DNA of 64,000 bases, taken from positions 111,230,001 through 111,294,000 of the forward strand of contig NC_058368.1 in assembly GCF_018350175.1 (NCBI RefSeq). The letters run 5' to 3'. A program made the position numbers and the translations under genes. The first letter of the stretch is position 1. Each line of letters opens with the position of its first letter. Below are positions 1,967-63,466 of this stretch, in pieces. Under the pieces are notes generated by a model that had not been told where the DNA came from, ran no database searches, and saw only the letters and a program-made list of their open reading frames with translations. The DNA comes from Felis catus (lineage: Eukaryota).

Positions 1967-3214
1967 CTCAAGCATGCTCCCTGCTCAGCACGGAGCTCAA
2001 TGAGGGGCTTGATCACATGACCCTTGGATCATGAGCCGAGCCAAAATCAAGTGTTGGATGCTCAACCAACCGAGTCACCCAGGCACCCCTTTAATGCACT
2101 TTTTGATTTTAAAATGCTTATTGTGAAACACACTTACACTTTATATAAAACACATATGCACAGTTTATTTATTTATTTTTAAAGTAATCTCTGTGCCCAG
2201 TGTGGAACACAAACTCACGATCCTGAGATCAAGAGTCACATGCTCTACTGACTGAGCCAGCCGGGTGCTCTGCATATGTACAGTTTATTTGTTTGTTTAT
2301 TTATTTAAAATATTTATTATTTTGAGACTAATGGTCTTTGGCTATTAAATGTGTTAATTGAAGTCAGCTGACGGAGTGACTTTACCATATGCATTTATTA
2401 GACTCAAAGATGAGGATTTTCATTGTAAATGCATATTTAAAGAGGAACTTTCAGTCTTTACTGAAAATTATTCATTAAGCCATTTTGTATTGTATGGTAA
2501 ACTGTTACAAGGTAGAATTGTAAAGGCATATGTTTGCAACCGCTAATCTGCTCCAAGTTGTTAAGAACAACATGCATAGCCACCTCTCCTGAGTTAGAGA
2601 TATCAGATAAAAAGACTCCTTGGCCTATATAGATAAACAAATATTATTAACTAATAGTAAAATAAATTTGGGAGTGGAAGGGCCTTAATGAGAGAAGAAT
2701 CATACTTGATTAACATAACAAATATGGATGTAGTGAATCTGTGGCTCAAGCCACTTGTCTGTGGCTCAAGCCTTTCTTGTCTGAGTTGACATACTTTACG
2801 TTAAACCTAACCTTACAGAAAAATTGAACTTTATGTTAAAATTTGCTTAGAGAGCAAGTAAGAAACAAACAGAATCAAAGGGATACAGGATACTTTACTT
2901 CCAGATCAGAAAGAACATATGTATTATCCTGGCAGTGTTTTATTAAAATAAAATCAATGTCCAGTATTTTTTAAAAAAGGAAATAGGAGATGAGACCAGA
3001 AAGGAAGCCAGGGATAGAGGGTCCAACAAGCTAAGATAAGGACTTTGGAAGTTTTGAGCAGGGAAGTTGATACGATCCATGTTTTAAAAAGGTGATACGA
3101 TGTGCAGGGAATAAATTATAGAGGGATAAGCGTTGCTGCAAAAGTATCAGTTGGTCAAGTGCTTTTCAGACTTTAACTGTGATCTACAATAAAAAAATAC
3201 ATTTTAAGTAGTGA

Positions 3215-3262: not shown

Positions 3263-3552
3263 GAAACCACAATATTTGTCTTTAATTACATGTAATGTAC
3301 TGTGATGTTTGCCATTCTTTTTTTTTTAAGTTTATTTATTTATTTTGAGGGAGACAGAGACAGCATGAGTGGGGGAGAGACAGAGAGAGAGGGAAAGGGA
3401 AAGGGAGAATTCCAGCAGGCTCCCAGCTGCCAGCACAGAGCTTGATATGGGGTCTGAACTCGTGAAACTGTGAGATCATGACCCGAGCCGAAACCAAGAG
3501 TCAGATGCTCAACTGACTAAGCCACCCAGGCGCCCCTATATTTGCCATTCTT

Positions 3553-3769
3553 TTTTTTTTTTTTTTCAACTTTTATTTATTTTTGGGACAGAGAGAGACA
3601 GAGCATGAACGGGGGAGGGGCAGAGAGAGAGGGAGACACAGAATCGGAAACAGGCTCCAGGCTCTGAGCCATCAGCCCAGAGCCTGACGCGGGGCTCGAA
3701 CCCACGGACCGCGAGATCGCGACCTGGCTGAAGTCGGACGCTTAACCGACTGCGCCACCCAGGCGCCCC
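3553..3769 (-). mobile_element. Young feline Can-SINE
   Basis: GGGGCGCCTGGGTGGCGCAGTCGG head on - strand, CpGs intact, (CT)n and A tail; TSD TGCCATTCTT at 3543-3552 and 3770-3779. Confidence 0.95.
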
Positions 3770-4639
3770 TGCCATTCTTAACTAATGTCTTCTGTTTGAT
3801 GACAAAAAGGATAGTTTGTAACTCATTGATTTTATAAGTCATTTAATATGTTGCTACTCACAGTTTGATAAATAGTATTAATCCACTAGTATAAAACATT
3901 TTTGTACAATGAGAACCTTTGTAGAGACTCATATAAGATGACTTCTGTTTTGAGAAATAAGTTTTAAGGAAAAATCTCACCTTATAATTGGGTGTTTATG
4001 GTACTTTGAAAAATCAATAGCATTTTAACTAATAAGAAATAAAATTAAATATTCTATCATAACTATTTACGAGGTAAAAAATATTTAGTAGCAAATTAGC
4101 TAAATTTAGTTTCTTTTTTTTTCCTCTTTTTTTGGGAGTGGAGATAGAGTGCGTGCGTGTGCACATGGAGGAGGGACAGAGGGAGAAAGAGAGAATCTTA
4201 AGCAGGCTCCATGCTCAGTGTGGAGGTGATGCAGGTCTCGATCTCATGACAGTGAGATCATGACTGAGCTGAAATCAAGAGTCCAATGCTTAACCAACTG
4301 AACCACCCAGGTGCCCCTAACTAGGTTTAGTTTAAATAAGTTACAATATCTTAATGAAAAAAGCATGAAATATAGTTGGAAGATACATGTTTGAATAAAT
4401 GTAGAGATATACCATGTTTGTAAATGGAAAAACTTTCTATCATAACAATATCAAGCTATCTAAAACTAATACATACATCAAATGTGATTCTAGTCATTTT
4501 ATTTTGTATGTGTAGGAATCTGCATAAAGGGTCTTACATTTTTGTGTATGTTTGAAAATTTTCATAATAAAAAGGTTTATAAGAAGGTATCTTACCTTTT
4601 TTTAATAACTTCCTTTTTCTCTTAATATTCTTTTTTAAA

Positions 4640-4780
4640 CTTAAAAATTTTTTTAAGTTTATTTCTTTATTTTGAGAGAGAGAGCAGGTGAGCAAAGGAG
4701 GGGCAGAGAGAGAGAGAAAGGGAGAAACCCAAACAGGCTCCGTGCTATCAGCACAGAGCCCGATGAGGGACTCGAACTCA
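4640..4780 (-). mobile_element. 5'-truncated Can-SINE joined to POLR3K fragment
   Basis: Begins at the B-box region TGAGTTCGAG on - strand, with (CT)n and A-rich tail; head is missing. Confidence 0.85.
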
Positions 4781-4783
4781 GTA

Positions 4784-4910
4784 ACTTCGGATTTGTTACC
4801 TTGTGAGTGATGTTGCACATGTAGCAGCAGGTGTTGCAGGCAAAGTGCTAGCAGCGCTGTCCCTCCTCCATGATCATCCCATTCCCACAGCTCAGGCAGA
4901 AAAGCAGCAT
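4784..4910 (-). pseudogene. POLR3K: Processed pseudogene fragment of RNA polymerase III subunit RPC10/C11
   Basis: Minus-strand translation from ATG 4910: MLLFCLSCGNGMIMEEGQRC*HFACNTCCYMCNITHKVTNPK, matching recalled POLR3K MLLFCPGCGNGLIVEEGQRCHRFACNTCPYVHNITRKVTNRK; in-frame TAG at 4850-4848. Confidence 0.9.
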
Positions 4911-5014
4911 GGCAGCCAACTTTCTTATTTCCTTTTATTGTCTAATTTTAGGGATAGAAATAACAGTTTATTCCTGGGTAGGAGAAATAATTCTCAGGAT
5001 TTTTTTTTTAATAT

Positions 5015-5840
5015 AACAGCTTTAAAGTGTACAGTTCAATGGTTTTTAGTGTATTCACAGAGTTTTGCTTCCATCAGTACTATCCGTTTTATAATATATT
5101 TTATAATTCTCAAAAGAAACTTTGTTCCCATTAGCAGTTATTCCCCATTCCCTCCTCCACCCAGCCAGGGGAACTGCAAATCTGTCTCTGTGTCTGTGAA
5201 TTCTCCTATTCCGGACATTTCATGTAAATGAATCATACATTGTACGTATGCCCTTTTGTGACCAGCATCTTTCACTTAGCTAATGTTTTCAAGGTTTATC
5301 TGTGTTAAAAAATGTCATCAATATTTCATTCCTTTTATGATCAAATAATATTCCATTGTATAGATACACCCCTTTTGTTTATCTGTTCATCAGTTGCTGA
5401 ACATTTGGGTTGTTTCCACTTTTTGGCAATTGTGAATAATGGTGTTATGAACATTTGTGTATGAGTTTTTATGCAGGGTAGGAGTGGAATTGCTGGATTA
5501 TACATTAACTGTTTAATACTTTGAGGAACTGCCAAAATGTTTTCTGCTGTAGTTGCACCATTTTACACTTCCACTAGCAATGTATGAGGCTTCCAGTTTC
5601 TCTGCATTCTTGTTAACACTAAAATGTTTACTGTCTTTTCATTTTAGTCATCTTACTTGGTGTCAGTGCCATCCTGTTGTGGTTTTGATTTCTATTTCGC
5701 TAGTGACTAATAATGTTGAGTGTTTTTTGCATGTACTTACTGGCCATTTGTATATCTCTTTAGAAATATATTTGAATGTCTAAATCCTTTGCTCATTTTT
5801 AATTGAGTTATATGTCTTTTTATTGTTGAATTGTATGAGT
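5015..5840 (-). mobile_element. Old L1 (L1M-type) 3' fragment
   Basis: Degenerate ORF2 C-terminal peptide on - strand (YNPAIPLL...FTIAKKWKQPKC) and L1M 3' UTR-like sequence. Confidence 0.8.
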
Positions 5841-5920
5841 ACCACATGTTGCACTGTATTTTTAGAAGTATTTTTATTGCTTTGTTTGCAAGACTAATTT
5901 TTTTCTCTTCTTATTGGAAG

Positions 5921-6409
5921 GTCCTGTCCAAAATACACTGATGTCTTCACAAGTATCAGTGAGCCAAGGATATAATTCTCAGCTTCCAGGATCCTACCCT
6001 CATCTAATACCAGCAAAGACTCTGAATCCCGTCTCTGGACAGTCTAACTATGGTGGTTCTCAGACTGTTTCTCCCTTAAGTAATTATCAGGGACCTGGGC
6101 AGACTCTTTATAGACCACTTGTGGCTTCTAATCCAGTGACAACTTCACTCCACGGTGGTTCTGTTCCCCGAATGCCACTACCTACTTCTCAGAACGCAGC
6201 TGCTACATCAATGCCTTCTGGTAGCTTTCTTCCTGGAGCCAGTGTACAACCACCTTCAAATTGGCAATATAACTATCCATCCACAGGATCCCAGACAGAC
6301 CATTGTCCTCGTGCATCATCCCAATCTCTGTCTGGGAATACAAATTTGACAACTCATCAATATGTTTCTTCTGGGGATCCTTCACTTCAAAACAGCTTCA
6401 TAAAATCAG
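5921..6409 (+). CDS. SEC24A: SEC24A exon 2 (Pro/Ser/Gln-rich N-terminal region)
   Basis: ttggaag|GTCCTG...TCAG|gtaaag; encodes GPVQNTLMSSQ...QNSFIKSG; 489 nt, phase 1-1. Confidence 0.95.
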
Positions 6410-6716
6410 GTAAAGTTCTTAATAGGAGTGCTTCATATGTAGAAATGAAGAAAGTTTTGCTTGTTTAGATGTTCTAATTAACATTTCAAGCCCTGAAACC
6501 ATATGGAGAACTATTGGTTTTTTAAATCATTGTTAATCTTTAAAGAAATTACTTTTCTAAACTTTGAGTTAACTTAAAATCATGGATTTGCTTCCTTCCT
6601 TTGAAACTATGCTCTGTGTTTCTTTCAGCCATGATATTTCAGGGAATCAGATATGCATACAGAACCACTTCCTTAAGGACTTGCCATTACTTTTTTTTTT
6701 AATGTTTTTATTTATT

Positions 6717-15771: not shown

Positions 15772-15843
15772 CTATTATTTTTTTATTTAAGGTGTTTTTA
15801 TTAAAGCCTGGGTCCAGGACCCATGGACAGAAAGAGCTGCCGT
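15772..15843 (-). mobile_element. Short polyadenylated LTR-R-like retrocopy (copy 1)
   Basis: 39/51 ungapped identity to 45908-45958; AATAAA then A-rich tail; flanking direct repeat ATTTTGTYATAT at 15760-15771 and 15844-15855. Confidence 0.6.
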
Positions 15844-16696
15844 ATTTTGTCATATTAAAAAATTTTTTTTAATGTATTTTTGAGAGAGAGTAAGAGAGTG
15901 CATGCGTGCACACACACGGGAGGGGCAGAGAGAGAGGGAGACACAGAATCCAAAGCAGGCTCCAGGCCCTGAGTTGTCAGCACAGAGCCTGGTTCTGGGC
16001 TCAAATCCACAGACTGTGAGATCACGACCTGAGCGGAAGTTAGACGTGTAATCGACTGAGCCACCCAGGCACCTCACGAATTTTTTTTTTCTTTTTTTAC
16101 ATTTATTCATGTTTGAGAGACAGAGAGACAGAGCACAAGTGGGGGAGGGGCAGAGAGAGAGGGAGACACAGAATCCGAAGCAGGCTCCAGGCTCTGAGCT
16201 ATGAGCACAGAGCCCAATGCGGGGCTCGAACTCATGAACCGCGAGATCATGACCTGAGCTGAAGTCAGAGGCTTAACCGACTGAGCCACCCAGGCGCCCC
16301 AAATTTTGTTATTTTTAAATAGTCTTTTTAGAACGTTCAACAAAACAAGTCTTTTCAGTAATAAATTTAAGTTTGCATTTGCATATTTGGGTCATCACCT
16401 TGTAATTCCAGTGTAATATAGATTTATATAAAGGAAAATAAGTCATCTGTTAGTCTGAACTGTCTTATGCACAAGCCAAGCCAAAAAGAGACTTTATTTT
16501 AGTTATATAATAGTTGTAATTTTCTACCCTCTCTTTCTGAATAGGACTTAAATATTTAAATGGGACAACATTTGAGAGGACCTATTGAAGTGTTCTTTGT
16601 AATTTGATCCAGTGTTAAATGTACCTTTTGGAGTTTTTTTTTTTATCCAAAAATAATCATAACAACAACTGACACATGATTTTTACTTTGATACAG

Positions 16697-18169: not shown

Positions 18170-18866
18170 GTATGTTCTGGTTTTTTTTTTTTTTTTTTTT
18201 TTTTTTTGAAACTTTTTCAAATTTCTCCTTGCATTGTAGGGAAAGCCAATAAGACAAATGTAAAGTTAAAAAAAAAACAAAAACACAACCCCAAACCCTT
18301 TCTTACTTACCTGTAATCCTTCTACTCAGAGATAACTTCCATTAACTTTTTTCTGTGCATTTATACTTATATATAAAAAATTGTATACTTTTTGAACAAA
18401 AAGTGTGATAATATTCTGATACTTTTTTTTTACATTTATTATATTGGGTATATAATAAATGGCATATTTCATGGTATTATTTAAGCCTATAATTTAAGAA
18501 ATATTTTTATTTAGAAACTGTCCCATGCCTTTTCTCTAGGGTGAAAGAAATAAGTCCACAGAATAGCTGCCCTTAGCTTCATTCACTGCAATAAGGAGGG
18601 AGGTGGGCAGTGCTAGAAGGTTAGTTGAATGTAGTTTTTTCAGTAATTGAGGAAGAGGAGATCTCTTTCAGAAGCTGTTAACAGTTTATATTTAAGGAAT
18701 TTCATCTAACCAGTAACATTTTATTAGGATTAGAGAAGAAAAAGGGTATACTGCTATCCACATTGAAAATTAGGTCTCTGGTGTACCTGGCTGGCTCAGT
18801 CAGTAGAGCATGTGACTCTTGATCTCAGGGTCGTGAGTACAAGCCCCATGTTGGGCACAGAGCTTA

Positions 18867-24579: not shown

Positions 24580-26119
24580 GTAAGTATCTTAATTCATCTT
24601 AAATTTGAAACTAGCAAAATGAATAAGTAGTGTCAAAATAGAAAAAATGCTATATAATTGTGTTCTAAAACTCCATAAAATTGATTCGTTAACTTTAGAT
24701 CTCACTTTCTCTGAGAAACATAAATTTATTTTAACTTAAAAAAAAATATTTATTCATTTTGAGAGAGAGTGTGAGTGGGGGAGGGGGAGAGAGAGAGGGG
24801 ACAGAGGACCCAAAGCTGGTTCTGTGCTGACAGCAGCAAGCCTGGTGTGTGGCTGAAACCCACGAATCATGAGATCACGACCTGAGCTGAAGTCAAACCC
24901 TCAACCGACTGAGCCACCCAGGTGCCCCTTACTTTTTTTAAATGAAAAAATTTCAAACATGTAAATAGAAAGAATGTAGTGAACTTCCAGGTACTTATCC
25001 CTCACCTTCAATATTTTTAGCGTTCATCTGTTTTTGCTTCATCTAATTCCTCCCATACGTAAACACTTTTTTCCCCTTGAGTGTTTTTACTCAAACCATA
25101 GTCAGCATATCCTTTTAACTATAAGTACTTAGAATTATTTTTAACCCTAAGATTCAAGTATTACACTACACAAAATTCGCAATAGTTCCATAATATGATT
25201 TAATACCTGGTTCTAGTTTTGGTTTTGGTTGTCTCAGAAATGTCTTTTTACTGTAAGTTTGTTGACATAAGAATACAAACAGTGTGTACAAGTGGCATTT
25301 CATTATCCTATCTCTTAAGTCTCTTAAAATATCTGTATGTTAAATGGTTCCTTAGATACTTAGTGTAACCCATAAAAGCTAGTATGACTTTTCAGTGTAA
25401 TGAAACATAGTGCTCTTGTGTTGTGTGGAAGAATGTGAAGTATCAAATCATATCAGAAGTGGACTACTAAGTCCTTCACCTTGGTGAAAGGAGCCTCCTT
25501 GTTCTTTCTGGCATTTTTTTTTTTTTTAAGTTTATTTACTTGTTTTGAGAGAGAGAGTGTGTGCAGGAGCATGTGCAGAAGGGGCACACAGAGAAGGAAC
25601 GAGAGAATCTCAAGCAGGCTCTTGGCTGTCAGCCCAGAGCCCCATGTGGGGCCTGATCCCATGACCCTGGGATCATGACTGGAGCCGAAATCGAGAGTTG
25701 AATGCTTAACTGACTGAGCCACTCAGTGTACCCAGTATTTATATTTTTAATTTAGATTGTATATGGGGATTGTCTGTTGATGTGAAACTCCACTGACTCA
25801 TCTAAGCCTGAGCAACAAGAATGAAAACTAGTTTGTCCCTCTCCTTAAGAAACTATAGGTCAACACATTTAAGTTCTTAAAGACAAATCCTCCTGTTGCT
25901 CTTTTTTTTTTTTTTTTTTTAAGGTTTATTTACTTTTGAGAGAGAGTGAACAGGGGAGGGGCAGAGAGAGTAGGGGATAGAGAATCTGAAGTGGGCTCAG
26001 TGCCAACAGCAGAAAGCCTGATGCAGGGCTTGAACTCAAGAACCGTGAGATCATGACCTTAGCTGAAGTCAGACACTCAACAAACTGAGCCAGTGAGGTG
26101 CTCCTTACTGCTCTTCTTT

Positions 26120-26351
26120 TTTTTTTTTTTTTTTTATTTTTATTTTTTCAATGTTTATTTATTTTTGGGACAGAGAGAGACAGAGCATGAACGGGGGAGG
26201 GGCAGAGAGAGAGGGAGACACAGAATCGGAAACAGGCTCCAGGCTCCGAGCCATCAGCCCAGAGCCCGACGCGGGGCTCGAACTCACGGACCAAGAGATC
26301 GTGACCTGGCTGAAGTCGGATGCTTAACCGACTGCGCCACCCAGGTGCCCC
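26120..26351 (-). mobile_element. Young feline Can-SINE
   Basis: TSD CTTACTGCTCTTCTT at 26104-26118 and 26352-26366. Confidence 0.93.
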
Positions 26352-27057
26352 CTTACTGCTCTTCTTAAGACAAACAACATAAGAGATTTGGGTAACCTTT
26401 AAAAATTTTTTTAGTGTTTTTATTATTTTTGAGAGAGAGAGACAGAGTGCAAGTGGGGGAGAGGCAGAGAGAGAGGGAGACACAGAATATGAAGCAGGGT
26501 CCAGGCTCTGAGCTGTCACCCAGAGCCTGATGTAGGGCTTGAACTCATAGCTGTGAGATCATGACCTGAGCCAAAGTCGGACGCTTAACCAGCTGAGCCA
26601 CCCAAGAGTCCTTGGGTAAACTTTTAAAAGAAGTGCAGTACTTAATTTATATTTTGGAATTACCATTTATGGTAATTTTTTAAAACTATTTTTGATAAAT
26701 TAAAATCATCTACAAAGTTTTCACTACAGGAACATGAAAAGTTTTGTATACACTTTCAAGTATTTTTTATCTGCCACTTCCTGTGTGACTTATTTAACTT
26801 CATATAGGTGTAATGAGTTTTGGATTGCTTTATTATTGCTTGGTTTTGTTGATTGTTTGGCTTCTGCAGTGTTTTCACTTTGTGCAGGGTATGTTTTCAT
26901 GCTAATTAAACATTGAATGGGTTGAACATTTATGTTGGGACACTTCCCATAATACCAAAGTAGTTATTTGCATGTTAACTCTTCACAGATATTATATATA
27001 TATATATATATTTATATGGGAAAACTTGATGAAATCCTCTTCTGAATTTGTTTATAG

Positions 27058-32997: not shown

Positions 32998-33473
32998 CCT
33001 GAATAGGTAGTTGTTTTTCATTTTGTTTTTCTTTTGTAGTGGTATTACTAGTTGGCAAATTTACTGGCTATCTTAGACTTTTCAATAGGGAAGAGTTAAA
33101 CTTGCTTTGGAACTGAAAAGAATAATGTGTGTAGAGGTGATTGAGAAGGCCATGTTTCATGGCATTAAAATAAAACAAATCTCTAACCTGTGATGGTTCT
33201 TTTGGATACATTTTGGACTTATAGTCTTGCTGGACTACTGCATGTGCAAGAACTGTAAGGCCCCAATTTTGATTTGTCTTGCTTGCCAATTTATAATGTT
33301 GACTTAAAATGGCTTTCTTGTCATTTGACCAACTTCATTGTTTACTGTACTGTCTGTAGATTCTCTGACCATCATCACAACTCGGTGTCTTGTCTACTGT
33401 ATTAGTTACTGATTTTTTGTGAAAAAAAATTTTACTTGTAACACCTTTGAGTTTTCTTGCTTTATTTTACAAG

Positions 33474-33680
33474 CTTGTTCAAGATTTACTGAAAACTTTG
33501 CCACAAATGTTCACCAAGACCCTGGAAACGCAGAGTGCCTTGGGTCCTGCACTTCAGGCTGCCTTTAAGCTGATGTCCCCAACTGGTGGTCGAATGTCTG
33601 TCTTTCAAACACAACTTCCTACTCTTGGAGTGGGAGCCCTGAGACCGCGAGAGGAGCCCAACCAAAGGTCTTCTGCTAAG
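33474..33680 (+). CDS. SEC24A: SEC24A exon 13
   Basis: tacaag|CTTGTT...TAAG|gtgagg; LVQDLLKTLPQMF...PREEPNQRSSAK. Confidence 0.96.
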
Positions 33681-34993
33681 GTGAGGGTGTCATCACATGT
33701 ATGTTACTGTACATGGTGGTGTTCTGCTCTGTCCCTTTGACCACAAAGCTTGTTTCTCATTTACTTTTCAGTTGTGGAGAGTAGGGAGTATAAGGAAATA
33801 GGTAAAGCATTTCTCTTTTATGTCATAATTTCTATTTTATTACATTTTCTACCTGATTGACTCTTACTTTACTGTTGGATATTTGGCATGCTACTCACAA
33901 TGCAGCCTGCCTTTGATGAGAAAGTCTGGCAGCTAAGGAATATGCTTCTAGGGACAAAGTAGAACATGGATAAACACTAAAACGTAGTCATAGTTTGGTA
34001 TACTGACTGCCATAGAATTGCTTTTAACACCTTGTATGTATAAACTTAATTTGAGATGAGTATTTTTCAAAAGATGATGAGAGTTGCCATGTGCTACAAT
34101 TATGGTGTCAGTCCTGGAGTCTGTCTCCCTAAATTCTGCTTTTTAGGTGTATGAACTTGAGTAGTTAATTTCTTTGCCCTTCTCTTTCCTTATGTTTATT
34201 TATAAAGTGAAAATAATGGTAGTTACCTGCTTCTTATAGTAGTTCAAAAGGCTGAATGGATAATACACATGAATTGTTTAGAACAGTTTCCAGCATAGTA
34301 AACGTTAAATCGATTACCGAAATTAGCATAATAGGTATACTTCTTTTTAAAAGTAAAACAAAATAGGGGCACCTGGGTGGCTCAGTTAAGCTTCTGACTT
34401 CAGCTCTGTCATGATCTCATAGTTTATGAGTTCAAGCTCTGCGTTGGGCTCTCCGTTATCAGCACAGAGCCCACTTCCATCTTCTCTCTCCCTCTCTTTC
34501 TGCCCCTCCCCAGCTCACTTTCGCTCGCTTACTTGCTCTCTCTCAAAAGATAAAAAATAAAGGTAAAACAAAGTAGAAAATAGTTAAGCAGTACATGTTT
34601 TTTTACTGAAAAAGTGAAAAAATATTACAAAAATAAAGGATTTTTTTAGACTACCCCCCAAGGCTACTGTTAACATCTTGGTATATATAGATAGATTTTA
34701 AAATTTTATGACAATTTAGAGGCACCTGAGTGGCTCATTTAGTTAAGTGTCCTACTCTTGATTTCAGCTTAGGTCATGATCTCACAGTTTGTGCGTGGGT
34801 TCAAGCCCCACATTGGGTTCTGTGCTGACCTTGTGCAGCCTGCTTGGAATTCTCTGTCCCTCTCTCTCTGCCCCTCCCCTGCTCCCTTGAGCTCTCCCTT
34901 TCAAAATAAATGAATAAATAAAGTTTTAAAAAACATAAAAATTTTATGACAATTTAATTTAAATTTTTTCTTTATATAATTTATTATTAATAG

Positions 34994-39754: not shown

Positions 39755-42700
39755 GTAAGAATTGTTATCACCTATTGTAAATATTTCACAAATAATAACA
39801 TTAGAAAAATCTGGAGAGTTTTATCTTGCTTTAAATTTTTTTCTTAAATTTACTTTTAGAGAGAGTGAGCGTAAGTGGTGGAGAGTGACAGAGGGAGAGA
39901 GAGAGAATCCCAAGCAGGCCCCACACTCAGCAGGGAGCCCTGTGCAGCGCTCATCTCATGACCCTGGGGTCATGACTTGAGTCAAAATCAGCAGTCAGAT
40001 GCTGAACCGACTAAGCCACCCAGGCACCCCTTATTTTTCTTGAAATAATTAGCTTTAGGGGCATCTGTGTGGCTCAGTCAGTTAAGTGTCCGACTTCGGC
40101 TCAGGTCATGATCTCCTGCCTAGTGACTTCAAGCCCTGTGTCAGGCTCTGTGCTGACAACTTAGAGTCTGGAGCCTGCTTGGGATTCTGTGCCTCCCTCT
40201 CTTTCTGCCCCTTCCCTGCTCACGCTCTTTGTCTCTCTCTTAAAAAAAAATAAACATTAAAAAAAAATACTGGGGCGCCTGGGTGGCTTGGTCGGTTGAG
40301 CGTCCGACTTCGGCTCAGGTCATGATCTCACGGTCCGTGAGTTTGAGCCCCGCGTCAGGCTCTGGGCTGATGGCTCAGAGCCTGGAGCCTGTTTCAGATT
40401 CTGTGTCTCCCTCGCTCTCTGCCCCTCCCCTGTTCATACTCTGTCTCTCTCTGTCTCACAAATAAATAAACGTTAAAAAAAAAAAAATTAAAAAAAATAC
40501 TTAACTTTAAAGGTTTCAGTGTTTTGGATTCTGTGTATGCCTCCTAAGTAACTACTTGAATGAAAGGAACTTTTTTTTTCCTTTATTTAAGCAGCTTTAT
40601 TAAGATATAATTTATGTGCCATATCACTTAACCTATTTTAAGTCTGCAACTCTGTTATCTATGATATATTTGCTGAATTGTATGGCCATCACCTCAATCT
40701 AATTTTAGAACATTTTTATCATCCCAAAAAGAACCTCATGCCTATCAGCAGTAACTGCCCACTTCCTCTTTTTATCCCTCACCAGCTTTAGGCAACTACT
40801 AAACTGCTTCCTGTTTTATAATCTGCCTGTGGTGGATTTAAATAACCATATTTTACTAAATGTTCAATACTAAAGGTTAATAGCTTTCTTGTGAGGTCTG
40901 TAACTTGGATTGCAAGAGACAGTGAAGTTATGTAAAGATCATTATTCTTGGAGTCATGGAATTTGAGATTGAAAACCAGTTTACTTTTCACACATAAGTT
41001 TGCATTCTTGGCCAGATCACCTGAGCTAGAATTTATTTATTCATACCTTCAGTTCTTTACTTCTGTCTCAGACATAGTTTAGTTGCCTCCTTGATTTTTT
41101 GTTGTTGTTTTTACTTTTTTTTTCTCCTTGAGGAAAGATGTCGTTCGGTCCATTTACTTCAAACTCAAATCTGCCTATGATAAGGGTGATTACTTTTTTT
41201 TTTTTTTATTTCCTATTGGTAAATTCTTTTTTTTTTTTTTTTTAAGTTTATTTTGAGAGAGAGAGAGTGAGCACGCCTGAGCAAGGGAAGGGCAGAGAGA
41301 AAGGGAGAGAGAATCCCAAGCAGGCTCCGCACCATTATCAGGAGCCCATCTTATGGCTCTAGCTCATGAACCGTGAGATCATGACCTGAGCCAAAATCAA
41401 GAATTGGATGCTTAACTGATTGAGCCACCCAGGTGCCCCAGCAAATTTTTTCTTTAATGAAGCCTGATGAAGGCCAAACCCATTTTAGTTAGTCTCATAT
41501 GCTGTTGAAAGTTAAAGATTGTGGGGGTGCCTGGGTGGCTCATTCGGTTGGGCGTCCGACTTCAGCTCAGGTCATGATCTTGCAGTCCATGAGTTCGAGC
41601 CCCGCGTCGGGTTTTAGGCTGATGGCACGGAGCCTGGAGCCTGCTTCCGATTCTGTGTTTCCCTCCCTCTCTGCCCCTCCCCTGTTCATGCTCTGTCTCT
41701 CTCTGTCTCAAAAATAAATAAACGTTAAAAAAAAAAAAATTAAAAAAAAAGAAAGTTAAAGATTGTGACCTAAGAAATTTGAGGGTCATTGCCTTTATAT
41801 TTTGTTCAACTAATACTTTTTAGTAACAGTATGATCAATATTATCTTTATTGTCATCAGCAAGAACTATATATTAGGTGGTATTTGTAGGTCTGAAAAAA
41901 TCTGCACAATGGTTTGCTTCACAAAAAGTATTGGTTTTGTTACTAAATTCGGTTGATAGCATTATGAACATTTTTTCACATTTTATAAATTTTTTAAAAA
42001 ATTTTATAAATTTTTTTCACATTTGATAAAGATTTTATCAAAATCTTTAAAATCAGGATGTCTTCAATTGAAGTCTTAAGAGTTAACTGTTGATCAGGTT
42101 GGCTATATACAAATTTGGTTATAGCAGTTAATAACATCACTTTATTGATTGTATTTTTTTTAATGTTTATTTTTGAGAGAGAGGGAGAGAGGCCAGGAGT
42201 GGGGAGGGGCAGAGAGAGAGAGAGAGAGAGGTAGAGAAAGAATCCCAAGCAGGCTCTCTGCTGTCAGGGCAGAGCCCGATGTGGGGCTTGAACTCACGAA
42301 CCGTGAGATCATGATCTGAGCCAAAGTTGGACGCTTAACCAGTTGAGCCACCCAGATACCCCAGTACTGATTGTATTTTTGATATCACATGAATTGACGT
42401 TTTTTTTTTTTAAGCTTATTTATTTTGAGGGAGAGAGAGCTCAAGGAGTAGGGGCAGAGAGAGAGAGGGAAAGAGAGGATCCCAAGCAGGCTCCATGCCA
42501 TCAGCACAGAGCCCCACGCAGGGCTCAATCTTAAGAACCGTGAGATCATGACGTAAGCCGAAATCAAGAGTCAGATGCTTAACCGACTGATCCATCCAGG
42601 TGCCCCAACATAAATTTAGTTAGTTAGTTAGTTAGTTAATTAAAATTTTTATTATTTTTTAATGTTTATTTACTTAGTTTTGAGAGAGACAGAGTGTAAG

Positions 42701-42883
42701 TAGGGGAAGGACAGAGAAAAAGAGAAACACAGAATCCAAAGCAGGCTCCAAGCCCCAAGCTAACAGCACAGAACCTCATGCAGGTTTCAGACACAGGGAC
42801 CACAAGATCATGGCTTGAGCTGAAGTTGGACGCTTAACCGACTGAGCCACCCACATGACCCTTAACTTTTTTTAATGTTTATT

Positions 42884-42920
<37 letters not shown>

Positions 42921-43801
42921 AGAGAGCGAGCCAGAACATGAGCAGGGGAGGGGCAGAGAGAGAGAGAGGGAGGCCCAGAATCTGAAGCATACTTCAAGCT
43001 GTCAGCACAGAGCCTGATGCAGGGCTCAAACTCACAGCCGTGAGATCATGACCTGAGCCGAAGTCGGACATTTAACTGACTGAGCCACCCAGGTGCCCCA
43101 TGAATTTAGTTTAGTTGTAGTTTAAGAATTCTCTAAAACAATTATATGCTTTTAGTGTTTAAATTTTTCTTCAGGGGAAAAATTTTTTTTCCAGTATGCT
43201 GAAATGCATGTAAACAGAGTGGCATGACAGGTGATGAGAAGCATCTAAGTAGCTAAGAGCTCTTGCAATAAATATAGGGTAAAATTCTCTGTGAAGAAAG
43301 CATGTGCTTTAGTTGCAGACTTTTTTCTTTTTCTGTAGTATGTAGATAAAATGGTGGATTACTACTAATAACATCTTAGATTTGGGGTACCTGGGTGGCT
43401 CACTTGGTTGAGTTTGTAACCCTTGATCTCCAGGTTATGAGTTCAAGCCCCACATTGGGAGTAGAACTTATTTAGAAAGAATATTTCAAAATAACATCTT
43501 AGATTGAACAAAGAACAGTTTTCCCATTTTACAGGTAAGGAAACATACTCATGAAGGTTAGATTCCTTGCCATATTGTCTTACAGTTAGGAAATAGAGAA
43601 GCATTTCAGCCAACTTTGATTTGACTCTTCAGACGATGTGCTTTGAGCTGCTATGCTTGTCTCCTTGTGTATGTGATACATTGGAGAGGGAATATGTATA
43701 ATAAAAAAAAATACATCTCTTCTATCTGTAACAGTGGGATTGAAGTGGGATAGCTAAACTTCTATCTTCTCTCTTGTTTGTTCCTGCCTTCCATCTGTTA
43801 G

Positions 43802-43977
43802 CTGTTGACAGGTCTGTGACTGCCAGTCTGAGTGATGCTCGAGATGCCCTAGTGAATGCTGTCATAGATTCTCTTTCAGCTTATCGTTCTTCAGTCCTAA
43901 GTAACCAGCAGCCTGGACTCATGGTTCCTTTTTCTTTGCGGCTTTTCCCACTCTTTGTGTTGGCTCTCCTTAAACAG
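43802..43977 (+). CDS. SEC24A: SEC24A exon 18 (helical domain)
   Basis: tgttag|CTGTTG...ACAG|gtaaga; VDRSVTASLSDARDALVNAV...FVLALLKQ. Confidence 0.96.
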
Positions 43978-44959
43978 GTAAGAGAGTTAAACCCAGAAAC
44001 TAACACAATAATGTCATTAGCCCAAGTTTTTATCCTGTAAACCACTAAACATTGTATGTATAACTTTAAGCCAGTTAAGTTTTCTAAGCACAGGGATCCT
44101 GGCTTTTATTGGAACCTTGAAAAAATTTGTAACCCAAAAAAGTTTAAAAATACTGATTTAAAGCGTGTGCCTTATTTGTAAGAGATGAAGGTATTCACTT
44201 AAGTTATCAAAGATGTAAGTGATGTAAGTAATGATCAGTTTTCCAAAACAATCTTTTATTGCTAGAGCAAGGAGTGACACATGAAACTCTTCTTTGGTTT
44301 TTTCCTGCTCCCTACAGTATCTCAGCCACATACTACTAAATCTTAGCTATGCCTTCTCATACCTGTGCCATGGGCTGCATTGCACTTTCCTCTTACTGTG
44401 TTTGAGCTCAAATGTTATCTCTCTAGCAGTTGCCTTTCCTTCTATGGTCCTGTAGAGTTTTTCATTTGATATTGTTATTTAATGATCTCCCCTGCCTGCC
44501 CTTTATCCATACCACTGGCTCCCCCTGCCCCGCTCTCCAAAAAAGAAAGGAAACTCTGGGCTGGTGAAGGAGACTTATTTTTCCAGGGTACAAAATCCAA
44601 TGTCCAAGCTTATGTACTTACTGTAACTTTCCCTTGTAAGTTTTATTAAAAAGCTCATGTTAATAAATCACTTAGGGTTACATCCTAGATTTCAAAACTG
44701 ATCAAAACTACTCTGGATCTTGTCAATTTGTATACTTTTCTGAACTCCAGGATCTACCTGTCTGGTGTATGTCATCTCTTCTTAGGTGAGAAGGGTAACC
44801 CACTTAACCTAATAGGATGGCTTTTGGATCAGCTTCTAGTTTCTTTAACTCAAATTATGCATTTCTACTTCTGAATATAATCTAAATACATAGAAATTAC
44901 ATAAATACTTAAATTTTAACATTTAAAAATCTGAGCTTTTCCCTCTTCAGGTCTTTCCT

Positions 44960-51544: not shown

Positions 51545-51728
51545 AGTGTGCCAAAGAGGGCCTGCCACCTGTTTTTGTTTTACTGGAACATAGCTATGTC
51601 CATTCACTTATGTATGGTCTGTGGCTACTTAGTGGAACATTGGTAGGGTTGTGTATTGCAAAAGAGACCAAATGACCTGCAAGCCAAAAGTATTTATTGT
51701 CTGACCTTTTAAGAAGTTTGTGTACCCC
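51545..51728 (+). mobile_element. MER58A-like hAT-Charlie MITE
   Basis: Recalled motifs gggcctgccacctgtttttg...ttttactggaacatagc...agagacc...aaagtttg. Confidence 0.7.
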
Positions 51729-51943
51729 TAGGGGAGCCTGGGTGCTCAGTCAGTTAAGCATCCAATTCAGCTCAGGTCATGATCTCACGGTTTGTGAGTT
51801 AAAGCCCCACATCAGACTCTGTGCTGACAGCTCAGAACCTGGAGCCTGCTTCGGATTCTGTGTGTACCTCTCTCTCTGCCCCTCCCCAGTTTAGACTCTG
51901 TCTCTCTCTCTCAAAAAATAAACAAACATTTAAAAAAGTTTGC

Positions 51944-53469
51944 GGAACCAGAAAAGACCCCAAATAGCGAAGACAATCTTCGAAAAGAAAACCAAAGCAG
52001 GAAGCATCACAATCCCGGACTTCAAGCTGTATTAGAAAGCTGTAATCATCAAGACAGCATGGTACTGGCACAAAAACAGACCCTCAGATCAATGGAACAG
52101 AATAGAGAACCCAGAAATGGACCCACAAACGTATGGCTCATCTTTGACAAAGCAGGAAAGAATATCCAATGGAATAAAGACAGTCTCTTCAGCAAATGGT
52201 GCTGGGAAAACTGGACAGCGACATGCAGAAAAATGAACCTGGACCACTTTCTTACACCATACACGAAAATAAACTCAAAATGGATGAAAGACCTAAATGT
52301 AAGGCAGGAAGCCATCAAAATCCTCGAGGAGAAAGCAGGCAAAAACCTCTTTGACCTCGGCCTCAGCAACTTCTTACTCAACATATCTCTGGAGGCAAGG
52401 GACACAAAAGCAAACATGAACTATTGGGACCTCATCAAAATAAAAAGCTCCTACACCACAAAGGAAACAATCAGCAAGACGAAAAGGCAACCGACAGAAT
52501 GGGAAAAGATACTTGCAAACAACATTATTAGATAAAGGGTTAGTATCCAAAATCCGTAAAGAACTTCTCAAACTCCACACCCAAAAAACAAATAATCGAG
52601 TGAAGAAATGGGCAAAAGACATGAATAGACACTTCTCCAAAGAAGACATCCAGATGGCCAACCGACACGTGAAAAAATGCTCAACATCACTCATCGTTAG
52701 GGAAATACAAATCAAAACCACAATGAGATACCACCTCACACCTGTCAGAATGGCTAACATCAACAACTCAGGCAACAACAGATGTTGGCGAGGATGAGGA
52801 GAAAGAGGATCTCTTTGCATTGTTGGTGGCAATGCAAGCTGATGCAGCCACTCTGGAAAACAGTATGGAGTTTGCTCAAAAAATTAAAATTAGAACTACC
52901 CTACAACCTAGCAATTGCACTACCAGGTATGTATCCAAGAGATACAGGTGTGCTGTTTCGAAGGGGCACATGCACCCCAATGTTTATAGCAGCACTATCG
53001 ACAATAGCCAAAGTATGGAAAGAGCCCAGATGTCCATGGATGGATGAATGGATAAAGAAGATGTGGTATATCTATACAATGGAGTATTACTCGGCAACCC
53101 AAAAGAATGACATCTTGCCATTTGCAACTCCGTGCATGGAACTAGAGGGTATTATGCTAAGCGAAATTAGCCATTTGGAGAAAGACAAATATCATATGAC
53201 TTCACTCATATGAGGACTTTTAAGAGACAAAACAGATGAACATAAGGGAAGGGAAGCAAAAATAATATAAAAACAGGGAGAGGGACAAAACATAAAAGAT
53301 TCTTAAATATGGAGAACAAACAGAGGGCTACTGGAGGTGTTGTAGGAGGGGGGATGGGCTAAATGGATAAGGGGCATTAAGGAATCTACTCCTGAAATCA
53401 TTGTTGCACTATATGCTAACTCACTTGGATGTAAATTTAAAAAAAATAAATGAAAATACAAAAAAGGAA
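51944..53469 (+). mobile_element. Feline L1, 5'-truncated (~1.5 kb: ORF2 C-terminus, 3' UTR, A tail)
   Basis: Frameshifted ORF2 peptides ([55 protein letters not shown]); TSD AAAAAAGTTTGC at 51932-51943 and 53470-53481. Confidence 0.95.
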
Positions 53470-53650
53470 AAAAAAGTTTGCCTAGCTCCTACTAGAAAAT
53501 TGTGGTATACACACTCCCAGACCCCTTCCCTGAGACTTCCGAAATCAATATGTGCAGTTCAGCACAGGTGATTCATATACATGATAAACTTTGAGATGCA
53601 TTAGATATATGACTCAGGTAAACTGTATATTGCTGATTTTTGTTTAATAG

Positions 53651-57190: not shown

Positions 57191-59447
57191 GTGACTCGTC
57201 ATTTAAAGAGATATGGATAACTTGCCAGTTACTGAATTGTGTTATGTTGTACACCCAAGTCATTGGAAGGCTATGGCTGAAAGTGGTTTGAATCTAATCT
57301 GGTGTTACAGTGGTCATAAGCCAGGTGCACCTGGGTGTCTCAGTTGGTTAAGTGACCAATCTCAGCTCAGGTCATGAGAGCCTGGAGCCTGTTTCAAATT
57401 CTGTGTCCCACTCTATTTCTGCCCCTACCCTGCTTGCTCTGTCTCTGTCTCTCTCAAAAATAAATAAAAACTAAAAAAGAAATTATAGAGTGGTCATAAA
57501 CTTAATTCTTGATGCTCACTCTTCATAGATTTAAAGTTGGTGGTTTTTTTTTTTTTTTTAATTCTTGACAGGTTTCAAGTACTACTCCACTGACTTCTGG
57601 ATCCTTTGGTTATCAGTAAGATGCCTACTGTTAATCTAATTGTTACTTTGAAGATAATGTTAGCTTTCATGATTTTTCTTTTATCCTTAATATTCCTCAG
57701 TTTGGCGACTCTGAGTGTATTGTTTATCTTGCTAATTTTTCAGAGCACATTTTAATTTGAAAATCTTTGTATATCTTGATTTATGGAAAATTCTCTATTT
57801 TATTTATTTCTTTAATTGAAGTATGATTGACATATAAAGCTATTTTCTTTTAAAAATATGCTTGTCATTTTCTCTATTCTTTTTTACTTCAGAATTCATA
57901 CGAGACGTATCTTTTCACTAATTCCTCTTTTGACTATGTCCAGGTTGGACTTTTCATCTCATCTCATGAATATTATATCTGCATACCTGTATTTTTCATT
58001 TCTAAGATTAATTTTTTTAATACCCGTCTGGTTTTGGTTGGTTTCTTCCTGTTTTTGCTCAGTAATGTATTCAGACTGTTCTATAAAATTCTTTCTGGGG
58101 AAATTGGCAATTTTTTAAGTTTTAATTCCAGTTATTTAACATACAGTATAATATTAGTTTCAGCTGCACCATACAGTGATTCAACAATTACATACATCAC
58201 CCAGTGCTCATCACAGGTGCCCTCCTTTTCCTCCTCTTCCTCTTCTCCTCCTCCTCCTCTCTCCTCCTTTTTTTTAAAAAAAGTATTTTTTTATTAGTAT
58301 TTTTTTAAGTAATCTCTACCCCCCGTGTGGAGCTTCATCTCAAGACCCCAAGATCGAGAGTCGCATGTTCTTCCGACTGAGCCAGCCAGGTGCCCCTCAA
58401 CAAGTGCACTCCTTGTCCCCATCACCTATTTCACCTATACCCTCACCCCCCACAAATTCCAATTTTTTATTTGGTTGGCAGAATTTATTTTTTTTTCATT
58501 AATTCATGTATTTTGAGAGAGAGGGAGAGAGAGCAGAGGAGGAGCAAAAAGAGAGGGAGATAATCCGAAAAAGGTTCTGCACTATCAGCACAGAGCCCAA
58601 CATGGGGCTCAGACCTTCAAACTGTGAGATCGTGATCTGAGCCAAGATCGAGTTGGACATGTAACTGACTGAGCCACCCAGGTGCCCCTGGCTGGCAGAA
58701 TTTAAATGTAGTATTTATTCATGTTTGTTAGAATTTGAGTTTGTAGGTTACTGGAGTGGGAGAATTTTTGTTTTTGTTTTAGCTTATCTCTGTCCAAGTT
58801 CTCCATCCCTTCCTGCCCATCTAAGGGGTTTTTTAGTTGAATTTTCTGGCCCCTTCCCCAAGACTAGGGGTCATGGTAGTGTCCTGCAATGATTTGGGGC
58901 TATCGCCCACCAGCAGTGGGAAGACTAGTTGTCCTCTCTTCTGCTGAACTTAAAAGCTCAAGTTCAAGGCTATGTGGGTCAATAGCAAATGATATTTTGA
59001 ATAATTTTTGGAGGGAAAGCTTACCTCAAGCAGTGAGTCCTATTTGTCCCTATGTGTTTGTTATGTGAAGCACTTCCAGTGCTTTTTAGCCCATGGAATG
59101 TGCTACTGTTGCCTGCTCATGGACCTGCTGCCCACCAGGCCCAATGTTAGCTCTGCAACGCTGCGTTTTGGTCTGCTGTTTCTCTTGTTTTTGAGTCTAG
59201 TTATTTGTTTTTCTCCCTTGACATTTTTAGCTGTTATTTCTGTGTGGAGTGGAGAGGAGTCCAAGGATCAACTTACTGCCTAAATTTATCCCCCGGAAAC
59301 TGAATTCCAGTTTTATCACTTATGACTCAATCTTTTCAGCTGTGTATCTACATTTTATCAATCAAGTATTATTAGTAGCCCGCCTAAACAATGCTTCTAG
59401 CATCAAATAAAAATTATACATAAGACTCATTGAAAATGCCATGTTTT

Positions 59448-59667
59448 GGGGCGCCTGGGTGGCGCAGTCGGTTAAGCGTCCGACTTCGGCCAGGTCACGA
59501 TCTCGCGGTCCGGGAGTTCGAGCCCCACGTCAGGCTCTGGGCTGATGGCTCAGAGCCTGGAGCCTGTTTCCGATTCTGTGTCTCCCTCTCTCTCTGCCCC
59601 TCCCCCGTTCATGCTCTGTCTCTCTCTGTCCCAAAAATAAAATAAAAAACGTTGAAAAAAATTTTTA
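59448..59667 (+). mobile_element. Young feline Can-SINE
   Basis: TSD AAAATGCCATGTTTT at 59433-59447 and 59668-59682. Confidence 0.95.
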
Positions 59668-62230
59668 AAAATGCCATGTTTTGGGGCACTTGGGTGGCTC
59701 AGTCGGTTAAGCATCTGACTTCAGCTCAGGTCATGAACTCTCGGTTCTTGAGTTCGAGCCCCACACCGGGCTCTGTGCTGACAGCTCAGAGCCTGGAGCC
59801 TGCTTCAGATTCTGTGTCTCCCTCTCTGTTCCTCCCCCGGTCACACACACACAGACACACACACACACACACACACAGACACACACACACACACACACAC
59901 TCTCTCTCTCTCAAAAATAAATAAAGATTAAAAAAATTTTTTAAAAATGCCTTCTTTTGACACTTCCTCTAAAAGAAAAATTTCTGCAACTATTCACGTA
60001 AGTGTAATCTAGTGCTGTCAGTGCTAGATTTGTGGCAAAGTGGTAAGTTTTTTAAAGTTAATTTATGTATTGTGGGAGGAGGGGCAGAGAGAGGGAGAGA
60101 CAGAGTCCCAAGCAGGCTCTTTGCTGTCAGCACAGAGCCCGACATGGGGCTGCAATCCACAAACACTGAAAAAAATCAAGGCAGACGCTTAACCCAGTCA
60201 CCCAAAGCGCCCAAAATGGCAAAGTTTTAAAGAATGGATTTGTCCTTGTAAAGTCCATAGTGAGGGAGATAGAAATTAATATAAGAATCTTAAGTATGTG
60301 AGGCACCTGGGTGGCTCAGTCAGTTAAGTGTCCCACTCTTTTTTTTTTTTTTTTTAACATTTTTTAAATTCATTTCTGAGAGAGAGGGCGTGAAATAGGA
60401 GGGGCAGAGAGAGGAAGAAGGATCCAAAGGGGCTCTGCCCTGACAGCAGAGAGCCCAATGTGGGGCTTGAACTCATGAGGCATGAGATCATGACCTGAGC
60501 TGAAGTCAGAAGCTTAACTGGCTGAGCCACCCAGGCACTGAGCCATCTAGGTACCCTGTTTCTGACTTTTGATTTCAGCTCGGGTCATGATCTCTGCATT
60601 CCTGAGTTCAACCTCCATGTCAGGCTCTGCACTGACAGCAAGGAGCCTGCTTGGCATTCTGTCTCCCTTGCTCTCTGCCCTTCCCCCACTCTCTCTCTGT
60701 CTCAAGAATAAATAAATTTTAAAAAATCTTAAGTACGCACATCATTTGTCAAAGAATCACTTATACCACTGACAAGTACTAGGAAGTTTAATAAATAAAC
60801 TGCAGAAACCCGTAGATAAATGGTTCCTCAGGAATGAGAAAGTATGTGACATAAAATCTTCACATTTCTAATTCTTATCTAACTAAAGGGGCCATCATGC
60901 ATCTAAGGAGACAAATTTTTTATTTGGCTTTCTATAGGCCTTCTTAAGTGAAAAAAATATTGTTTATCCTAGAATTGTATTTGGTTTCAATTTATTAGAA
61001 CTATACTTCATTAAGTTCTGCACATTTATTATACTTAACAATTACTTCAGTTTTAGAATTTTTTAAAGACACTATTGGGGACTCAGATATAGGTCTGTAC
61101 ACAAAGGCAGGGGAACCGTTTCTAATGCTTTGTAATTATTAACCAGGGCATGTCCTTGGGACTTAGCTTTCATTCCATCAAGGGAGAACATCCGCATTTA
61201 TTTATATTTTTATTTTTTAATGTTTATTTATTTTTGAGAGAGTGTGAGTGGGGGAGGGGCAAAGAGAGGGGGTGAGCAGAGGATCTGAAGCAGGTTCTAC
61301 GCTGACAGCACTGAGCCCAATGTGAGGCTTGAACTCTTGAACTGCAAGATCATGACCTGAGCTGAAGTCAGATGCTCAACTGACTAAGCCACCCAGGCAC
61401 CCCTATTTCTAAACAAACAAACAAACAAACAAATAAATAAATGTTTATTTATTTTGAGAGAGAAAGAGAGCATGGATGCCAGCAGGGGAGGGGCAGAGAG
61501 GGACAGAGAGAATCCCAAGCAGGCTTTGCGAAGTGAGCACAGAGCCCAAGGAGGGGGTTCAATCTCCAGAACCATGAGATCACAACTTGAGCTGAAAGCA
61601 AGAGTCCTAGGGCACCTGGGTGGCTCAGTTGGTTAAGCCTAGAACTTTGGCTCTGGTCATGATTTTGTGCTTCCTGAGTTTGAGCCCTGTGTTGGGCTCT
61701 CTGCTGACAGTTCAAGAGCCTGGAATCTGCTTCAGTTTCCAGTTTCTGTCTCCTTCTTTCTCTTATCTTCCCGGCTTGAGTGCTTGCGCTCTGTCTCAAA
61801 AAACAAACAAGCAAACAAAAACCAAAAGAGTCCCATGCTTAACCCACTCAGCTGCCCAAACACCCCAAAATCCGTGTTTATATCTCAGCTCCTCATGTTA
61901 TTGAATCCAAAAGATAAATTGTTAGATTTTTTTTTACACTTTTTTTCTTAAACTTCTTATCTGTTTGGAACAGAGTCAGGTGACTAATGGTTAAATACAG
62001 TATTTCATTACTTTCTGTTTAGGGAGGATTTCACCTGCTTCCTAATTTTGACTATGAGTTTGACTCATTCTGGTTTCATTGCAGGGGACCCACTAGATAG
62101 CCTCACCCTCTGGAGCCTCAGGTGCGAATCGGCCACAAGGCCTCCTCAGCAAGCGTTGACGGATGATTCGATTCCTTCGTTCTTTTACTCATTCACTTTA
62201 TCTTTATGATTAACAGCTGCATACCAAATG

Positions 62231-62809: not shown

Positions 62810-63290
62810 CCCCAAAGCGTCGCTCCTCGAGTTACGTATTTCCGTAATCTATTAGCGAGGTCGCAGAAGGTCATTGGAAACAAGTGCCTGCCGCAGCAAC
62901 CTCCATTTTGCTTTTGGGCACAAGCCTAAGCTACGTATGGGCCTCATCTGTATTCCTTTACCGCTCGTTAGTTTGGGGGTTCGCTTTTCTTCATGTCCTC
63001 GTGAAGAGCAGAGAACCCTGTCGACGGAGGAGAGGAACATTGGTAGTTAAAACAGGCAGGAGGAACCAGGGCGGCCCACTCTGCCCTCATTCAAAATGGT
63101 GGCGCGAGACTCGCGCTTTGTCCGGTCGGGCGGCGCGCATGCTTAGCCAGCCTCTCCGGCTTGGCGTTCTGGAGGGGCGGGCCTACGGCGGGGGAGGCGG
63201 GGGGCTCGCGCCCTGCGGCCTGGCCTGAAGTCATCTGCGCTGCCTCTGCTACCTGCAGCACCACCTTCATCCTTCCCTACCTATGGAGGG
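62810..63290 (+). promoter_or_regulatory. CAMLG: CpG-rich CAMLG promoter / 5' UTR
   Basis: Sharp CpG enrichment; YY1-like CAAAATGGTGGC 63092-63103, NRF1-like GCGCATGC 63135-63142, GC box GGGGCGGGC 63174-63182. Confidence 0.85.
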
Positions 63291-63294
63291 GAAG

Positions 63295-63466
63295 ATGGAG
63301 CCTGTGACCGTAGCGACAGATAGCGGGGACCGGCCGGGGGCTCCAGCGGGCTCAGGCCTGTCGGCTTCCCAGCGTCGGGCCGAGCTGCGGCGGAGGAAGC
63401 TGCTTATGAACTCGGAACAGCGCATCAACCGGATCATGGGCTTTCACAGGCCCGGGAGTGGCGCAG
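63295..63466 (+). CDS. CAMLG: CAMLG exon 1 (calcium-modulating cyclophilin ligand / GET2 homologue, TRC40 receptor)
   Basis: aagATGG strong Kozak; [57 protein letters not shown]; donor GCAG|gtgaga. Confidence 0.96.

Follow-up and report, generated by a model that had tools for sequence, protein, structure and literature searches.

A POLR3K 5' mRNA fragment joined to the back half of a Can-SINE in a Sec24 intron, a probable retrotransposition chimera

The window analysed here, a 64-kb stretch of DNA, carries on its minus strand a chimeric unit in which a 5' fragment of the POLR3K (RPC10) mRNA is joined directly, and in the same orientation, to the back half of a Can-SINE (Table 1). The unit is inserted in antisense orientation within a Sec24 intron and is a dead, old fossil with no evident function or product. 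We regard it as probably a single retrotransposition chimera, which belongs to a known class and has a partner pairing that did not appear in the literature searched. As a whole it appears to bear the hallmarks of L1 mobilisation, a reading supported by its A-rich tail, a probable target-site duplication (TSD) and an AT/AAAA insertion site.

Table 1. Features of the chimeric unit and the neighbouring host exon (positions in the window)
Feature	Position	Strand	Remark
5' copy of the probable target-site duplication	4918..4934	-	flank AT/AAAAGG, best-scoring boundary
POLR3K 5' UTR remnant, 7 nt	4911..4917	-	last 6 nt = Ala-Ala before Met
POLR3K exon 1 coding part, codons 1-37, N-terminal zinc ribbon	4800..4910	-	decayed, CpG-depleted
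Premature TAG, codon 21 (His in the parent)	4848..4850	-	
POLR3K exon 2 start, codons 38-42, without intron 1	4785..4799	-	one change from a VTNRK back-translation
mRNA/SINE junction zone	4781..4786	-	per-column comparison with 54 SINE copies plus codon table
Old short-type feliform Can-SINE 3' half, consensus 74-201	4657..4780	-	B box, CT-rich tract, AATAAA; A box lost
Pol III B box	4769..4777	-	pattern scan
A/T tail, 33 nt (A run, T run, A run)	4624..4656	-	holds the 11-bp inverted repeat
3' copy of the probable target-site duplication	4607..4623	-	13/17 vs 4918-4934
Next host Sec24 exon, in open frame	5866..6468	+	insertion upstream of the frame, antisense

The initial annotation had described an ATG on the minus strand followed by 42 POLR3K codons with one stop, and both parts of this description hold. 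The ATG (4910-4908) opens 42 codons corresponding to RPC10/POLR3K residues 1-42, whose translation, with the stop read as X, matches the PDB entry 7fji_I with an E value of 8.7e-17 and the Pfam Zn_ribbon_RPB9 model with an E value of 2.5e-4, under the gathering score of the model. The single in-frame stop is a TAG at codon 21 (4850-4848). A leader is indeed found before the ATG, with 7 nt (4917-4911) and not the ~10 nt first proposed, and its last 6 nt give, together with the ATG, the Ala-Ala-Met also read in the fox and orca gene models (2 of the 5 compared), whereas those of camel and two other species differ. That this coding part is missing from the list of open reading frames is true but trivial, because the stop leaves an ORF of 20 codons. 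Compared with the fox protein, the copy shows at least 14 non-synonymous changes and differs at 12 of 78 fixed positions, and the 2 CpGs left in 4785-4917, against 17 TpG and 13 CpA, indicate a copy that is decaying neutrally. POLR3K coding sequence stops at codon ~42 of 108, the copy has no mRNA 3' end or poly(A) of its own, and tblastn found no further POLR3K coding piece within the window. Additionally, none of the 70 loci returned by a metagenome scan with the fox protein matched the POLR3K part at the DNA level, Rfam matched nothing inside the element, and a protein comparison of low sensitivity with the 83-aa read-through frame gave one match among 2 candidates (hamster RPC10-like) and none with SINE-derived sequence. 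The hamster RPC10-like UniRef entry (P0002), which is unrelated, has four substitutions in common with the copy (P6L, G7S, R36H and R41P); these probably represent parallel decay at mutable sites.

The copy is intronless, as had been claimed, with codons 38-42 matching exon 2 straight after codon 37. The exon boundary was placed from the POLR3K of other species, and the junction after codon 37 (4800/4799), which the initial annotation had given, is supported by two kinds of evidence. An insertion exactly after K37 is present in 4 of 68 homologous proteins (donkey, a bird, a bat and a viper), and GT directly follows codon 37 in all 5 eukaryotic loci inspected (two of them near-identical), which were chosen from 70 because tblastn had split them near codon 37; other loci are split near codons 46-49, so that the codon-37 intron is not universal. 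Seven of the 68 homologous proteins diverge past residue ~66, in agreement with the start of human POLR3K exon 3 at c.200 (PMC11919171), and the excerpt of PMC6283457 does not give the exon 1 boundary. The 15 nt past codon 37 are one change away from encoding VTNRK, a closeness equalled by 4 of the 127,970 15-mers of the window, its own included. Since the boundary between codons 37 and 38 is crossed without an intron, the template of the POLR3K part was an RNA; the copy derives from spliced POLR3K RNA and ends 15-20 nt into exon 2. Two other readings of the letters after codon 37 were rejected: a decayed SINE, to which they match at 7/16 positions against one change from exon 2, and intron 1, because intron-retaining gene models read on differently.

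The second half had been annotated as a headless SINE starting at its B-box region and ending in an A tail, and the alignment confirmed this. Against a consensus built from the short-type copies within the window, it aligns at 85% to positions 74-201, from the B-box region on; it begins at consensus position ~70-74 and the first ~70 nt are absent. A pattern scan of 4601-4940 detected the B box and no A box, and a rebuilt Pol III promoter was rejected for lack of the latter. This half contains a CT-rich tract, AATAAA and an A-rich tail, and a (CT)n tract and an A-rich tail are features of Can-SINEs (PMC13756887). From its SINEs, the source organism is judged to be a feliform. Feliform Can-SINE subfamily I, subtype IA, is diagnosed by a head motif, by CA and GGGA in the 3' tRNA-related part and by the lack of GGCTCGG; here CA is present, GGGA is matched at 3/4, the GGCTCGG block is absent and the head motif falls in the missing half. 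We tentatively suggest that the motifs of this now headless half resemble those of the oldest feliform Can-SINE subfamily, which has been dated to ~45-60 million years (PMC4084570). It differs from the window consensus at 16 of 124 positions, while the median for the 21 other copies is 17%, and the divergence of the two halves of the unit is alike (12/78 fixed coding sites vs 16/124 SINE sites, Fisher p 0.68). Other Can-SINE copies in the window have similar mixed A/T tails. The tail of the element includes a perfect 11-bp inverted repeat (4636-4661), and several other copies show an A run followed by a T run. An older Can-SINE copy (4131-4320) lies on the same strand ~300 nt from the element.

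The letters change from POLR3K to SINE within 4786-4781, where the two halves are joined either through 2-3 nt of microhomology or bluntly after a one-base insertion. If the letters are aligned with a 9-nt deletion instead (VTN---PKL), the parental breakpoint would fall at ~codon 46, still in exon 2. When the two parents are set in register, 9/18 letters are common, as in ~2% of 14,040 control pairs, and when the shared bases are left out, 7/16 are common (9%). There is no splice donor or acceptor in register at the junction, no A run and no middle copy of the target site. Splicing was therefore rejected as the origin of the join, with a breakpoint in the middle of exon 2 and no GT/AG in register, and a junction placed inside exon 2 without a splice signal makes the fusion neither of the SVA_F1 type nor trans-spliced.

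The degenerate direct repeats said to flank the unit are present, and the right copy (4918-4934) was correctly placed, but the left copy is 4607-4623 (13/17 identical) and not 4606-4622 (10/17). They are also weaker than had been implied, since about 3% of control pairs equal their score, and a repeat-finding program did not report the pair. By plain identity, 13/17 was reached by 8/43 and 6/43 control pairings; with composition weighting and gaps, the score was reached by 1/43, 0/43, 13/400 cross pairs and 14/300 shuffles. The boundary 4917/4918 was the best of the 42 tested (4908-4949) against the tail region, with 12.1 bits (10.7 for the next one), the 5' flank AT/AAAAGG has one mismatch to the L1 endonuclease site TT/AAAA, and 28 of the 43 intact SINEs of the window have better flanking repeats than the element. 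From these comparisons we propose, with moderate confidence, that the repeats represent a TSD, whose degeneration would be consistent with the age of the element.

The identity of both halves, the splicing, the common orientation, the direct join and the decay are established. A template switch from SINE RNA to mRNA in a single event, as proposed in the initial annotation, is the likeliest origin of the unit, although the single event is something that we infer, as are L1 as the enzyme and a switch in trans. The flanking repeats do not prove it, because an outer TSD is also expected after insertion of a SINE in the tail of a retrocopy followed by deletion. We give about an even chance to one L1-mediated insertion, primed on SINE RNA, with an internal switch to POLR3K mRNA. 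According to this proposal, L1 ORF2p would have nicked an AT/AAAA site in the Sec24 intron in the early feliform germ line, used the A tail of a Can-SINE RNA for priming and copied ~130 nt of SINE, to just beyond the B box. From there it would have moved onto another molecule, a spliced POLR3K mRNA, entering it internally at ~15-20 nt into exon 2 and continuing to 7 nt upstream of the ATG, and integration would have duplicated ~17 nt of the target. The product, with neither A box nor source promoter and with a stop at codon 21, would have been left to neutral decay.

Several observations favour one event. The join is direct and in the same sense and contains neither a middle copy of the target site nor an A run, unlike the SINE and L1 pair found at 51.7-53.5 kb; the unit as a whole is enclosed by the repeats (about p 0.03); the SINE body and the repeat are no more than 33 nt of A/T tail apart, and the window has no other POLR3K coding piece; the two halves are similarly diverged (Fisher p 0.68); and there are published precedents for internal switching (U5 and U3 as heads) and for a SINE as the 3' part (U6/Alu) (PMC4476161). 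Counting against it, the TSD is degenerate and would survive a two-step history too, the 5' part is cut at codon 42 of 108 whereas classical chimeras have a full-length one (PMC2104539), and snRNA/Alu chimeras have been called very rare and were not reproduced experimentally (PMC4476161). Two of the observations are ambiguous: the microhomology at the junction (9/18) fits a DNA deletion or a jump in cis equally well, and equal divergence cannot separate events that happened a few million years apart. The pair at 51711-53485 consists of a full SINE, starting at ~51731, followed directly by the 3' end of a 5'-truncated L1 of the same orientation. By eye, an AAGTTTG-type motif occurs at three places, before the SINE, between both elements and after the L1 tail; the pair was considered as a second chimera, but these three target-site-like copies suggest sequential insertion at one site.

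The same kind of sequential history could have produced the POLR3K unit in two steps and a deletion, which we consider unlikely, if far from negligible. A full processed POLR3K pseudogene, bounded by the outer TSD, would have received a full Can-SINE in or at its A tail and later lost at least ~270 nt (~200 nt of coding sequence and ~70 nt from the head of the SINE, together with the 3' UTR), from exon 2 to the B-box region. An intronless, decayed mRNA copy beside a SINE is indeed what a processed pseudogene with a later nested SINE looks like, and one site often receives several insertions in succession (PMC1687206); in the window, 6/43 intact SINEs start at most 45 nt from the end of another's body. 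In contrast to a nested SINE, the unit lacks a target-site copy in the middle, and each half is truncated where it faces the other, so that this history needs the extra deletion and three events in all. The element is old (13-15% diverged), which leaves time for such a deletion, and short homology at the junction suits a microhomology-mediated one, but the internal deletions seen in 3/54 SINE copies (14-29 nt), while showing that such losses occur, are about ten times shorter than the one required. Moreover, the SINE must have hit the last few bases of the retrocopy, as there is no 3' UTR or coding remnant past the tail, and the 33-nt tail shows neither a second TSD nor the length of a compound tail.

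Decidedly doubtful, in our view, is a jump in cis, an option absent from the initial annotation, in which a POLR3K transcript with exons 1 and 2 spliced would have ended at a sense Can-SINE of its own, located in intron 2 or the 3' region, by means of the AATAAA or A run of the SINE, and ORF2p would have jumped from the SINE to exon 2 of the same molecule. This would explain how an ordinary housekeeping mRNA came within reach; the SINE half carries an AATAAA, SINE-like matches make up 19% of the window, which makes a copy in POLR3K likely a priori, and the read-through step has been published for SVA (PMC12593883). On the other side, the proposal rests on a putative source SINE in POLR3K and needs an additional internal jump that is absent from the published SVA cases as excerpted, and the tail, mixed A/T as in ordinary Can-SINE copies, shows nothing indicative of polyadenylation of a Pol II transcript.

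We hold it very unlikely that the halves were fused at the RNA level before reverse transcription, either by splicing into the SINE (in the manner of SVA_F1 or by trans-splicing) or by ligation, with the 5' piece of an mRNA attached to the 3' piece of a SINE. Precedents exist: among the 17 human mRNA/L1 chimeras, 15 correspond to the beginnings of transcripts and 6 terminate at splice donors, and ligation of RNAs is recognised as one way in which U6/L1 forms (PMC13174262). Here, however, the junction lies 15-20 nt into exon 2, at neither the codon-37 donor nor the end of exon 2, and use of an AG-type acceptor, present in some SINE copies, would need a parental GT after codon 42, a place at which the protein sequence requires TAY; ligation and a template switch, for their part, leave the same sequence. 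Highly improbable is a small unrecognised feliform family of Can-SINEs with the Pol III head replaced by POLR3K first exons and mobilised more than once: nothing supports more than one copy, and the protein search, of low sensitivity, found no protein with the POLR3K/SINE junction. Such a family would have been made from a source in or beside the POLR3K locus, driven by the Pol II promoter of that gene, and would be a carnivore parallel of SVA_F1 formed without splicing.

Sequencing runs were searched in a set that listed one organism label plus metagenomes. Among the 24 runs listed, 16 hold 0.92-0.98 of the sampled words of 4330-5330, and 9 of these 16, which come from 6 studies, carry no mark as a possible source; the insertion thus appears to be widespread in the source organism. 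A collapse during assembly between a longer pseudogene and a full SINE is scarcely credible against these runs, in a window without N and at a junction outside any collapse-prone repeat, even though only ~3 of 101 sampled words span the junction and the best holders miss 2-4 words at places not shown.

The unit can be set beside several known classes of chimera. Template-switch chimeras described in PMC2104539 have a 5' part that is a full-length copy of a cellular RNA and a 5'-truncated 3' part with random truncation sites, joined directly in the same orientation within one pair of flanking repeats; simultaneous arrival of the two parts in the phylogeny is a criterion used in PMC13174262. The direct same-orientation join, the 5'-truncated, A-tailed 3' part and, probably, the outer direct repeats are shared with LINE chimeras such as U6/L1, U6/mRNA and U6/Alu and with the fungal WEIRD/Mg-SINE (PMC2104539). 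The unit differs from them in that its 5' part is a 3'-truncated protein-coding mRNA (42/108 codons) and not a full-length small RNA, and in that its 3' part is a tRNA-derived Can-SINE. Truncation of the 5' partner at its 3' end, which implies a switch to an internal position, is known from U5/L1 and U3/L1 (PMC4476161), although the partners there are a small nuclear RNA and L1 and here a Pol II mRNA and a SINE. The 17 mRNA-5'/LINE-1-3' chimeras of hg38 likewise have spliced sense first exons 5' of a retroelement and one TSD, the latter being probable for our unit, but their 3' partner is mostly a near full-length L1 and 6/17 junctions lie at splice donors, whereas we find half a SINE and a mid-exon junction (PMC13174262). 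SVA_F1 (MAST2 exon 1/SVA) and SVA exonic 5' transductions also replace the head of a non-autonomous element with 5' gene exons, and a switch between mRNA and SVA has been described; these fusions arise by splicing or read-through, and SVA_F1 was amplified into a family, in contrast to the single known copy without a splice signal reported here (PMC12593883).

The initial annotation had called the arrangement unusual, which agrees with our finding no published mRNA-5'/SINE-3' case, but its list of known chimeras (U6/L1 or snRNA/mRNA) was too narrow, as mRNA-5'/L1-3' (PMC13174262), U6/Alu and truncated U5 and U3 (PMC4476161) and exon/SVA fusions (PMC12593883) are in print. Neither an mRNA-5'/SINE-3' chimera nor this locus appeared in the literature searched, although the primary catalogue of human chimeras (PMC169886) may list such a case; the excerpts of PMC9435743, PMC5470649, PMC1687206, PMC13756887, PMC2912911 and PMC7488140 contain no such case. 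If the single-event reading is true, reverse transcription begun on SINE RNA can jump mid-way into an ordinary spliced mRNA. One published survey argues that SINE-primed switching is very rare, and a pairing of mRNA and SINE would escape surveys that use small RNAs or L1 3' parts as bait; the unit suggests that whole genomes could be screened simply for headless SINEs with an mRNA 5' end in front of them. This particular locus would be useful at most as a feliform phylogenetic marker.

The host gene is identified as a Sec24 gene by Pfam matches to Sec23_trunk (33423-33737) and Sec23_helical (43744-44037), and a Get2_like (CAML) match (63229-63507) stands at the end of the window; the frame at 5866-6468 has no Pfam match. 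By synteny with CAMLG, we take the host to be SEC24A. The insert creates no splice acceptor for the host gene (none with at least 15/20 pyrimidines). Elsewhere in the window, two to four SINEs stand head to tail, each in or near the tail of another, at 42123-43115, 25882-26628, 3289-3785, 15831-16315, 40050-40513 and 59432-59913, and two oppositely oriented pairs (60317-60757 and 61181-61647) have overlapping or abutting heads, one head being replaced by the inverted partner. Weak Rfam tRNA matches at 18785-18857 (plus strand, 35.9 bits) and 2194-2266 (minus strand, 29.3 bits) are probably tRNA-derived SINE heads.
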